This document shows, one piece after another, positions 22,197 to 22,507 of a stretch of DNA of 32,000 nt. The translations under genes and the position numbers were made by a program. Location of the stretch: contig CANPZY010000009.1 in assembly GCA_947588945.1 (NCBI GenBank), forward strand, positions 16,611 to 48,610, written 5' to 3'. Origin of the DNA: an uncultured Clostridia bacterium (GTDB lineage Bacteria > Bacillota > Clostridia > TANB77 > CAG-508). The stretch's first letter is position 1, and each line of letters starts with the position of its first letter. Under the pieces are notes generated by a model that was not told the origin of the DNA, made no database searches, and saw only the letters and a list, made by a program, of their open reading frames with translations.

Positions 22197-22507
22197 TGGA
22201 GCCACTTGTCCGATTTGAACGGACGACCTACTGATTCATACTACTACAATTTTCATTGCCATTTTTAATGTTTGTAGTCTGGACTTTCTCTTTGCCATAG
22301 AATTAATCTTTAGGCACATCGTATAAAGTCTCTACACTCGAAAATAAAATTTCTAGCTCGGGATTAACATATATTTCTACTTAGTATTCCCCGAATTAGC
22401 GATGTCCACTTTACAAATTTCTTTGTAAAGGTGCAAGATAGTTCAAAATAATTATAAAAATTATCTATCCCACAAGTCAGTTGCTCTACCAGCTGAGCTA
22501 AAGTGGC
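22197..22507 (-). tRNA. tRNA-Thr(UGU) interrupted by a group I intron (exons 22507..22472 and 22236..22197)
   Basis: The joined exons are GCCACTTTAGCTCAGCTGGTAGAGCAACTGACTTGT + AATCAGTAGGTCGTCCGTTCAAATCGGACAAGTGGCTCCA. They fold as a perfect 76-nt cloverleaf: 7-bp acceptor stem, D stem GCTC/GAGC, anticodon stem ACTGA/TCAGT, loop CTTGTAA, T arm GTCCG-TTCAAAT-CGGAC, encoded CCA. Confidence 0.88.
22237..22471 (-). ncRNA. Group I intron (235 nt, no ORF) inserted after anticodon position 36 of tRNA-Thr
   Basis: Sense strand: P1 pairs exon TGT + GGGATAG with CTATCTTGCA, giving a U-G wobble at the splice site. P2 is CTTTACAAA-GAAA-TTTGTAAAG (GNRA loop). P3 is ACATCG/CGATGT. P/Q-like elements are AATTCGGGGAA and AATCCCGAGC (P4 TCGGG/CCCGA). 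R-like element GTGTAGAGACTTTA, S-like AAGAGAAAGTCC. P7 is GAGAC/GTCC with a bulged A. P9 is ACTACAA/TTGTAGT. The last nucleotide is G. Confidence 0.85.

Follow-up and report, generated by a model that had tools for sequence, protein, structure and literature searches.

A group I intron in the tRNA-Thr(UGU) gene of uncultured gut Bacillota

Which tRNA reads the ACA codons of an uncultured gut bacterium in whose Lys-Glu tRNA operon standard annotation sees no tRNA for them? The question is raised by a stretch of 32,000 nucleotides (nt) of contig CANPZY010000009.1, from an uncultured Clostridia bacterium, which is called the window throughout. ACA accounts for 56% of the threonine codons (238 of 422) in the 18 open reading frames (ORFs) of the window. 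In the 311 bases 22507..22197, neither ARAGORN with default settings nor Rfam at gathering thresholds calls a tRNA, and only a tRNA-Lys and a tRNA-Glu are seen. These bases are read here, with high confidence, as a housekeeping tRNA-Thr(UGU) gene of an uncultured gut member of the Bacillota, interrupted at U36/A37 by a 235-nt, ORF-less, IC3-like group I ribozyme whose lineage is present in about 100 gut and rumen Bacillota species. The evidence comes from sequence anatomy, homology, structural covariation, distribution among relatives and sites that are empty of the intron.

The split gene and its operon

ARAGORN, when introns are allowed, reads the unspliced genomic sequence as tRNA-Thr(tgt) i(37,235). 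The gene and its operon comprise the following features.

22700..22728, minus strand: sigma-70-type promoter TTGACA-17-TATAAT upstream of the tRNA operon, 12/12 matches in a consensus scan; function putative
22594..22669, minus strand: tRNA-Lys(UUU), first gene of the operon (ARAGORN; RF00005, 74.1 bits)
22513..22587, minus strand: tRNA-Glu(UUC), second gene (ARAGORN; RF00005, 64 bits)
22472..22507, minus strand: 5' exon of tRNA-Thr(UGU), 36 nt, with the acceptor, D arm, 5' anticodon stem and C32-U36
22237..22471, minus strand: group I intron, 235 nt, IC3-like, without ORF, terminal (omega) G at 22237 (RF00028; nhmmer; covariation)
22197..22236, minus strand: 3' exon of tRNA-Thr(UGU), 40 nt, from A37 onward, with the T arm, acceptor and CCA

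The intron interrupts the third gene of the operon, tRNA-Thr(UGU), between U36 and A37. Exon 1 ends in CUUGU and exon 2 begins with AAUCAG, with U36 serving as U-1 at the 5' splice site. The joined exons form, by ARAGORN, a 76-nt tRNA-Thr(tgt) with a regular cloverleaf, the anticodon loop CUUGUAA and a CCA end. A preliminary description of the window had placed this gene third in a minus-strand Lys-Glu-Thr operon and had proposed both the removal of 22471..22237 and the resulting tRNA. Its coordinates and exon lengths are exact, ARAGORN agrees on the product, and the ARAGORN and Rfam calls for the neighbours bear out the operon.

The window is the chromosomal origin region, with the gene order rnpA-dnaA-dnaN-recF-gyrB...gyrA, so the tRNA operon is chromosomal and housekeeping and does not belong to a plasmid or phage. 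A BLAST search of the operon against GenBank phages matched the tRNA parts only and returned no intron homologue. The host is a low-GC member of the Bacillota (24.8% GC) whose nearest relatives are metagenome-assembled genomes (MAGs) labelled Clostridia, which is the kind of host that had been proposed at the outset.

One mechanically called ORF (22364..22654, minus strand, 96 amino acids (aa), TTG start) spans tRNA-Lys, tRNA-Glu and exon 1 and runs into the intron. It crosses tRNA genes and is spurious, and the earlier statement that the intron has no ORF holds. Naive pipelines could annotate this ORF as a gene. Sub-threshold Rfam matches to RF04354 (Plastid-ycf2 5'UTR) at 22515-22587 and 22596-22669 on the plus strand lie exactly antisense to tRNA-Glu and tRNA-Lys, and look like antisense-tRNA artefacts of that model.

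Homology and fold of the intron

A profile hidden Markov model was built from seven seeds of published bacterial tRNA introns of group I that have other tRNA hosts (Azoarcus Ile, Arg, Asp, Met, Ser, Thr-GGU and Thr-UGU position 3), taken from the Stockholm file of Williams (bioRxiv 2020, 10.1101/2020.01.27.920355). Run with nhmmer on the 32-kb window (64,000 bases searched), it gave a single match at 22436..22238 on the minus strand (67.8 bits, E=6.7e-21, model 10-219 of 220). The core block AAGAGAAAGUCCAG of the window intron aligns to the published seeds, and identity over aligned positions is 59-74%. In a permissive search, the Rfam model RF00028 (Intron_gpI) aligns end to end with the intron (model 1-253, 30.9 bits, E=5e-6). 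With a score short of the gathering value of 50, it goes unreported at that threshold, and standard annotation misses the intron. As stated in the text of the Williams preprint, none of the 12 seeds of RF00028 is bacterial, and the pipeline used there accepted RF00028 scores of at least 18-20 bits inside an ARAGORN split tRNA that has U-1 and omega-G. The window locus shows all three. Single-sequence folding by minimum free energy (z = -1.5), in which the pseudoknot is not representable, is by itself uninformative.

The low RF00028 score could also be accounted for by an intervening sequence of another kind that is superficially like group I, be it a protein-spliced bulge-helix-bulge intron, a group II intron or an insertion sequence, and protein-spliced tRNA introns also adjoin the anticodon. 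These, however, are canonically inserted at 37/38 with a bulge-helix-bulge, whereas the insertion here is at 36/37 with U-1 and omega-G, and neither an ORF nor terminal repeats are present. The full-length RF00028 alignment, the nhmmer match to established group I introns of bacterial tRNA genes and covariation that fits P1-P9 effectively refute such an origin, the probability of which is negligible.

The fold of the group I intron was drawn by hand as a P1-P9 model, which was tested on a MAFFT alignment (A1) of 68 distinct homologous introns. Its elements are given below.

22432..22474, minus strand: P1, 22474..22465 with 22441..22432, the U-1·G pair being 22472·22439; 98% paired, 3 compensatory pairs
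22464..22459 with 22453..22448, minus strand: P1a, an extra hairpin inside P1; 5/6 pairs compensatory
22409..22430, minus strand: P2 hairpin, 9 bp, with a GAAA tetraloop (L2); 8/9 pairs compensatory, 98.9% paired, found by RNAalifold too
22400..22405, minus strand: P3 5' strand ACAUCG, pairing with 22321..22316; 3 compensatory pairs, e.g., C-G to U-A in 24 sequences
22358..22394, minus strand: P4, UCGGGG 22394..22389 with UCCCGA 22363..22358, enclosing P5; invariant in 68/68
22336..22357, minus strand: P6 (GCU/AGU), invariant, and P6a hairpin, 4 compensatory pairs
22326..22332, minus strand: P7 5' strand G[A]GACUU with a bulged A, preceded by J6/7 (GU-A) and pairing with 22286..22281 in the predicted guanosine-binding helix; invariant, 99% paired
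22316..22321, minus strand: P3 3' strand CGAUGU (covariation)
22294..22315, minus strand: P8 hairpin with a second tetraloop-receptor motif, CCUAAA...UAUGG, read from the sequence; 4 compensatory pairs
22281..22286, minus strand: P7 3' strand AAGUCC, after J8/7 AAAGAGA (alignment to seeds)
22240..22278, minus strand: P9 domain, with P9 at 22278..22274 with 22244..22240; compensatory pairs in P9, P9a and P9b
22270..22267 with 22263..22260, minus strand: P9a, within the P9 domain
22259..22255 with 22250..22246, minus strand: P9b with a GAAA loop, within the P9 domain

The 73 pairs of the model are standard in 98.1% of 4739 cells of the alignment, and this value drops to 35-41% once the 3' strands are shifted out of register by 1-3 columns. 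Changes on both sides of a pair are found in 35 of the 73 pairs and amount to 452 cells, against 123±15 in shuffled alignments; none of 500 shuffles reached as high. Helices with such compensatory change are P1, P1a, P2, P3, P5, P6a, P8, P9, P9a and P9b. The outer pair of P5 offers an example, being AU in 29 sequences, GC in 29 and CG in 8. All 62 sequences that can be aligned at P1 have the U-1·G wobble, and the terminal G is invariant (G243 of A1). RNAalifold, which is independent of the hand-drawn model, recovers P2, P4, P5, P6a, P8, P9, P9b and most of P3. Wherever a column is at least 85% conserved across the 68 homologues, the window copy agrees with it, and hence looks intact.

In P1, the exon side UGU is formed by the anticodon itself and continues into GGGAUAG of the intron, both paired with CUAUCUUGCA. 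P5 reads ACUAAG-UA-GAAA-UA-UAUGU and combines an 11-nt-type GAAA-tetraloop receptor with a GAAA loop (L5), the receptor motif being taken from the sequence and from homology to Azoarcus. The strands of P8 are GCCUAAAGA...UCUAUGGC, and AUG with the omega-G at 22237 follows 3' of the P9 domain. The U-G wobble in P1, the terminal G, the P2 GAAA loop, P3, P4 and the bulged A of P7 that had been picked out by eye are all present. That picture needs additions, namely the P1a hairpin and the GAAA-tetraloop receptors in P5 and P8, and its P9 hairpin, although present, is one part of a three-part domain (P9/P9a/P9b). The preliminary description had also made its group I reading depend on a significant RF00028 hit and a consistent P1-P9 fold. 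The fold is consistent, and the hit is full-length yet below the gathering score.

The periphery agrees with subgroup IC3, with GAAA loops in L2 and L9b, receptors in P8 and P5, no P5abc or P2.1, and a size of about 200-250 nt. Judged from these motifs, the window intron is of the small IC3 architecture of bacterial tRNA introns that had been proposed for an insertion just 3' of the anticodon, an assignment with which RF00028, the seed profile and covariation agree. Structures of the Azoarcus intron are the source of a model in which L2 docks into P8 and L9 into P5. By analogy, contacts L2-P8 and L9b-P5 are probable in the window intron.

The closest parallel in detail is the intron of pre-tRNA-Ile(CAU) in Azoarcus sp. 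BH72 (IC3; seed Aol6.Ile2.5Ug), which is likewise inserted after anticodon base 36 ('5Ug'). Both introns have a 3-bp exon part of P1 derived from the anticodon, U-1·G, omega-G, a GAAA loop on P2, a P4 of the form UUCGGxG / xCCGA, the J6/7-P7 segment GUAGAGACU with its bulged A, and AGUCC in P7'. They also share tetraloop receptors in P5 and P8, the absence of an ORF and a length of about 200-235 nt. P7 of Azoarcus, G[A]GACUA/UAGUCC, has the same pattern as P7 of the window, G[A]GACUU/AAGUCC, which aligns together with its J6/7 and J8/7 flanks to Azoarcus and other seeds. The two differ in their tRNA host, their identity is 62% over aligned positions, and the window intron is AT-rich (32% GC in the matched part). 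Moreover, it carries the extra P1a and the three-helix P9 domain, as do the cyanobacterial and Agrobacterium types, whereas Azoarcus has a single P9 hairpin.

Several points weigh against this reading. Besides the low RF00028 score, P4, P6 and P7 are invariant across the alignment, and covariation is thus unable to confirm these helices, although invariance is what would be expected of a catalytic core. RNAalifold proposes an equally invariant alternative to P7, in which UGGAC (J2/3 and the start of P3, 22408..22404, columns 72-76 of A1) pairs with GUCCA (P7 3' strand, 22285..22281, columns 220-224). This pairing is mutually exclusive with P7 and part of P3, and neither option has covariation; it is probably an artefact of nested-only folding. 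P10 is weak, AA/UU pairs alone being evident. Finally, transcription and catalysis of the split gene, and the splicing of its intron in vivo, are predicted from sequence.

A mechanism can nevertheless be proposed for the IC3-like intron. The Lys-Glu-Thr operon would be transcribed from the consensus promoter, and the intron would fold into P1-P9, its P3/P7 pseudoknot core being braced by the L2(GAAA)-P8 and L9b(GAAA)-P5 contacts. Exogenous guanosine would attack after the U-1·G pair in P1, where the anticodon UGU pairs with the internal guide GCA. The terminal G237 would then enter the pocket of P7, and ligation of the exons would release mature tRNA-Thr.

Distribution, empty sites and mobility

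The presence of the intron in relatives was surveyed in one genome per GTDB species, with a pattern made of the exon junction and P4. The scan returned 103 loci, and a Thr(UGU) gene split at the same site was resolved in 92 of them, which answers the question of spread among relatives that the preliminary description had left to a database search. Removal of the intron restores tRNA-Thr(tgt) in each of these 92 loci and in the window. Seventy-seven of the resolved introns are without ORF and measure 205-302 nt, and the other 15 measure 611-629 nt. The hosts are nearly all uncultured MAGs from gut or rumen (human Hadza, rabbit, zoo animals, goat, sheep and deer). Most are labelled Clostridia, Clostridium or Clostridiales, about 20 Bacilli, Mollicutes, Tenericutes or Erysipelotrichaceae, and four are beta-proteobacterial. 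All hosts being MAGs, mis-binning is possible, e.g., under the labels 'Muribaculaceae' and 'Oribacterium', and this adds to the reservations above. The intron closest to that of the window (88% identity) belongs to a rabbit-gut Clostridia MAG (L169), and a contig of 99.99% identity is found in the ENA metagenome assembly ERZ27249446 (L001).

The genomic setting is conserved as well. The Lys-Glu-Thr operon with the split gene in third place occurs in at least 55 species, and a downstream short-chain dehydrogenase (SDR) gene is syntenic in 50 loci. In the roughly 20 Bacilli-type hosts, the split gene lies within a Val-Thr-Tyr-Gln-Lys-Leu-Ser-Met-Asp-Phe array. In all relatives the split gene sits in a housekeeping tRNA operon, which makes it plausible, from sequence context, that decoding of ACA would depend on splicing. 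The four beta-proteobacterial or Burkholderiaceae genomes (L164, L167, L207 and L216) also have tRNA-Thr(UGU) split at position 5, by an IC3-like intron about 47% identical to the Bacillota lineage. Identity this low suggests that the site was occupied independently or a very long time ago.

Sites without the intron were found by a metagenome scan for the joined exons, in at least 120 contigs that carry an intronless tRNA with identical exons. Most of these contigs (23-32% GC) show the same Lys-Glu-Thr operon followed by the SDR orthologue. The intronless alleles read CTTGT joined directly to AATCAG, leaving the splice junction unambiguous; the empty sites confirm the insertion point, and their occurrence in the same synteny means that the presence of the intron is patchy.

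That related organisms commonly carry intronless alleles of the same tRNA could suggest that the window intron is a decaying relic in an unexpressed or unspliced pseudo-tRNA, with an intronless Thr(UGU) gene decoding elsewhere. It would fit with this that a scan found no terminator-like site 3' of the tRNA-Thr gene. Against it, the exons equal those of functional-looking intronless alleles and are identical in 19 sequences of the resolved set, the window's own included, and the acceptor and T stems covary between host clades. The intron has kept its pairing and compensatory pairs, with no departures at conserved columns in the window copy, and a perfect consensus promoter stands ahead of the conserved housekeeping operon. 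In addition, no second Thr tRNA turned up, either in the 32 kb of the window or in the resolved loci of 8 kb each. Decay is thus a very improbable explanation.

The 15 long introns carry an insertion in the P5 loop, and in most of them an HNH ORF of 138-154 aa, or a truncated form of it, begins there. The last codons of the ORF (YSLYGNPELG) form the P5'/P4'/P6 part of the ribozyme core. The protein matches Pfam PF01844 with 21.4 bits, exactly at the cut-off of that family, and PHROG HNH families down to 3.6e-20. The ORF looks intact in L151, L157, L175, L191, L206, L208, L212, L219, L221 and L225 and is degraded in L153, L159, L182, L186 and L199, and no ORF of at least 60 aa was found by script in 2 of the 15 long introns. 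Several copies are frameshifted or truncated, as expected for a decay cycle of homing endonucleases. All HNH variants lie in Bacilli/Mollicutes-type tRNA arrays. The window copy contains no intron-encoded endonuclease ORF, its L5 being a GAAA tetraloop.

In a neighbour-joining tree of the SDR protein, loci with and without the intron interleave, with 21 Fitch parsimony changes over 118 tips. The closest pair of an intron-plus and an intron-minus locus is 89% identical. As a single-gene tree without support values, it gives only a rough count of gains and losses, which is a further point on the cautious side. Intron identity is nevertheless correlated with SDR identity (Mantel r=0.60, a value reached by none of 2000 permutations).

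Such patchiness, together with HNH-encoding variants at the same site and an anticodon stem-loop target of the same sequence across hosts, might instead indicate an actively mobile intron, recently acquired horizontally through homing by a trans-acting or phage-borne endonuclease. One IMG/VR contig, L058, indeed carries a Thr(UGU) position-5 intron. This contig is, however, the only viral one that fits the specific pattern, the window copy is without ORF, and the HNH variants are restricted to the Bacilli/Mollicutes-type array. The closest introns (86-88% identity) reside in the hosts with the closest SDR genes, and the divergence of intron and host gene is correlated. Recent transfer is therefore considered very unlikely. 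The data are most simply read as long-standing vertical inheritance, interrupted by repeated precise losses and some re-gain; the window copy would then be a survivor that is free of the endonuclease. On this model, the intron would mostly have been inherited with its locus, through repeated loss or gain, the lineage would have a homing history, and some hosts labelled Bacilli or Mollicutes would have retained the HNH endonuclease in the P5 loop.

A broader IC3 core pattern, AATTCGGGGAA..AATCCCGAGC..GTAGAGACT, was tried and rejected as too unspecific, matching at least 120 IMG/VR contigs (L003-L122) with many isotypes. Among the matches listed, ARAGORN with introns allowed recognizes about 53 split tRNAs, including Arg-UCU, Phe, Leu-UAA, Tyr, Ser, Gln, Asn, Ala, Met, Lys and Thr. 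Group I introns thus seem to be common in phage-borne tRNA genes.

Known tRNA introns and neighbouring genes

The preliminary description correctly named the four classical bacterial cases of tRNA group I introns and implied that a tRNA-Thr host would be new. The text of the Williams preprint (10.1101/2020.01.27.920355) widens the list from these four to 21 tRNA/position types with 5,292 introns. Its seeds include Thr.5Ug, in a GC-rich tRNA-Thr(GGU), Thr.3Ug, in a UGU tRNA, and Thr.2Ug. A tRNA-Thr host is therefore not new, and the same-site introns of the 92 GTDB loci likewise take away the implied novelty. Bacterial and phage tRNA group I introns are far commoner than the classical list suggests. 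In the nomenclature of Williams, the window intron is a 'Thr.5Ug'. The Thr.5Ug seed, Rba53, with its GGU host, is 59% identical to it, and the UGU seed, Mti5, is split at position 3, compared with position 5 in the window. The nearest seeds are Wba81.Asp.4Ug (74%) and Mti5.Thr.3Ug (72.5%).

A literature search found Thr(UGU) introns of Firmicutes in no paper besides the Williams preprint, whose table, an image, left the Firmicute position-5 counts unreadable. The Thr(UGU) lineage of gut Bacillota and its HNH variants seem to be undocumented in the searchable literature. Most of the host MAGs are presumably later than the January 2017 data set of Williams, going by their project names. It may be, but is rather doubtful, that this is an uncatalogued lineage of tRNA-Thr(UGU) position-5 introns residing in the only tRNA gene that decodes ACA and ACG in a large clade of uncultured gut Bacillota with small genomes. 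Should the gene be the only one, decoding of the commonest threonine codon would depend on a ribozyme and could potentially be tuned by guanosine nucleotide or Mg2+ status.

The cyanobacterial tRNA-fMet intron provides a parallel for the mixture of copies with and without an enzyme. According to Bonocora and Shub, it reportedly encodes the homing endonuclease I-Ssp6803I. As in the Thr(UGU) lineage, some copies are said to carry an endonuclease ORF and others not, with a sporadic occurrence among related hosts. The enzyme of the Thr(UGU) lineage, absent from the window copy, is an HNH protein in the P5 loop that overlaps P5'/P4'/P6 and not a PD-(D/E)xK protein.

The intron also has consequences for annotation. 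Detection of group I introns was not among the design aims of tRNAscan-SE 2.0, according to the paper on that program. Default ARAGORN and Rfam at gathering miss both intron and tRNA, so that tRNA-Thr(UGU) will seem to be absent from about 100 gut species and, probably, from many more metagenomic populations. Such an apparent lack can mislead completeness checks and screens for 'missing tRNAs' or codon reassignment. The known working of these introns is unchanged by the finding. A well-populated Bacillota lineage is added to the bacterial tRNA introns, with 68 natural variants that map the fold. The endonuclease-plus, -degraded and -free copies with their matching empty sites form a compact natural data set for the homing cycle and for the persistence of a ribozyme in an essential gene.

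Among the neighbouring genes, a nonribosomal peptide synthetase of 2485 aa (22864-30321, plus strand) is divergent from the tRNA operon and comprises two modules, C-A-T-C-A-T, with a terminal reductase domain. It appears to be lineage-specific, as none of the 103 related loci yielded a counterpart in tblastn. Genes similar to those of type IV secretion systems (T4SS) occur at 8153-12406 (plus strand) and 17300-20734 (minus strand), between gyrB and gyrA and beside dnaD/dnaI-like genes. They encode a TraG-P-loop/VirB4-like ATPase (585 aa), a CbiA/ParA-like protein (396 aa), a T4SS-pilin-like protein (143 aa) and a TraG-D_C/TrwB-like protein (362 aa). These genes had raised the suspicion that the tRNA operon was borne on a plasmid or an integrative and conjugative element (ICE), which was ruled out by the origin-region genes and by a plasmid BLAST of 20 kb that gave gyrA-like matches only. 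Synteny of the 362-aa protein extends, at 60-72% identity, to about 29 related genomes and to many metagenome contigs. With this synteny and conservation, the T4SS-like set seems to be a conserved apparatus of the chromosome and not a recent ICE.

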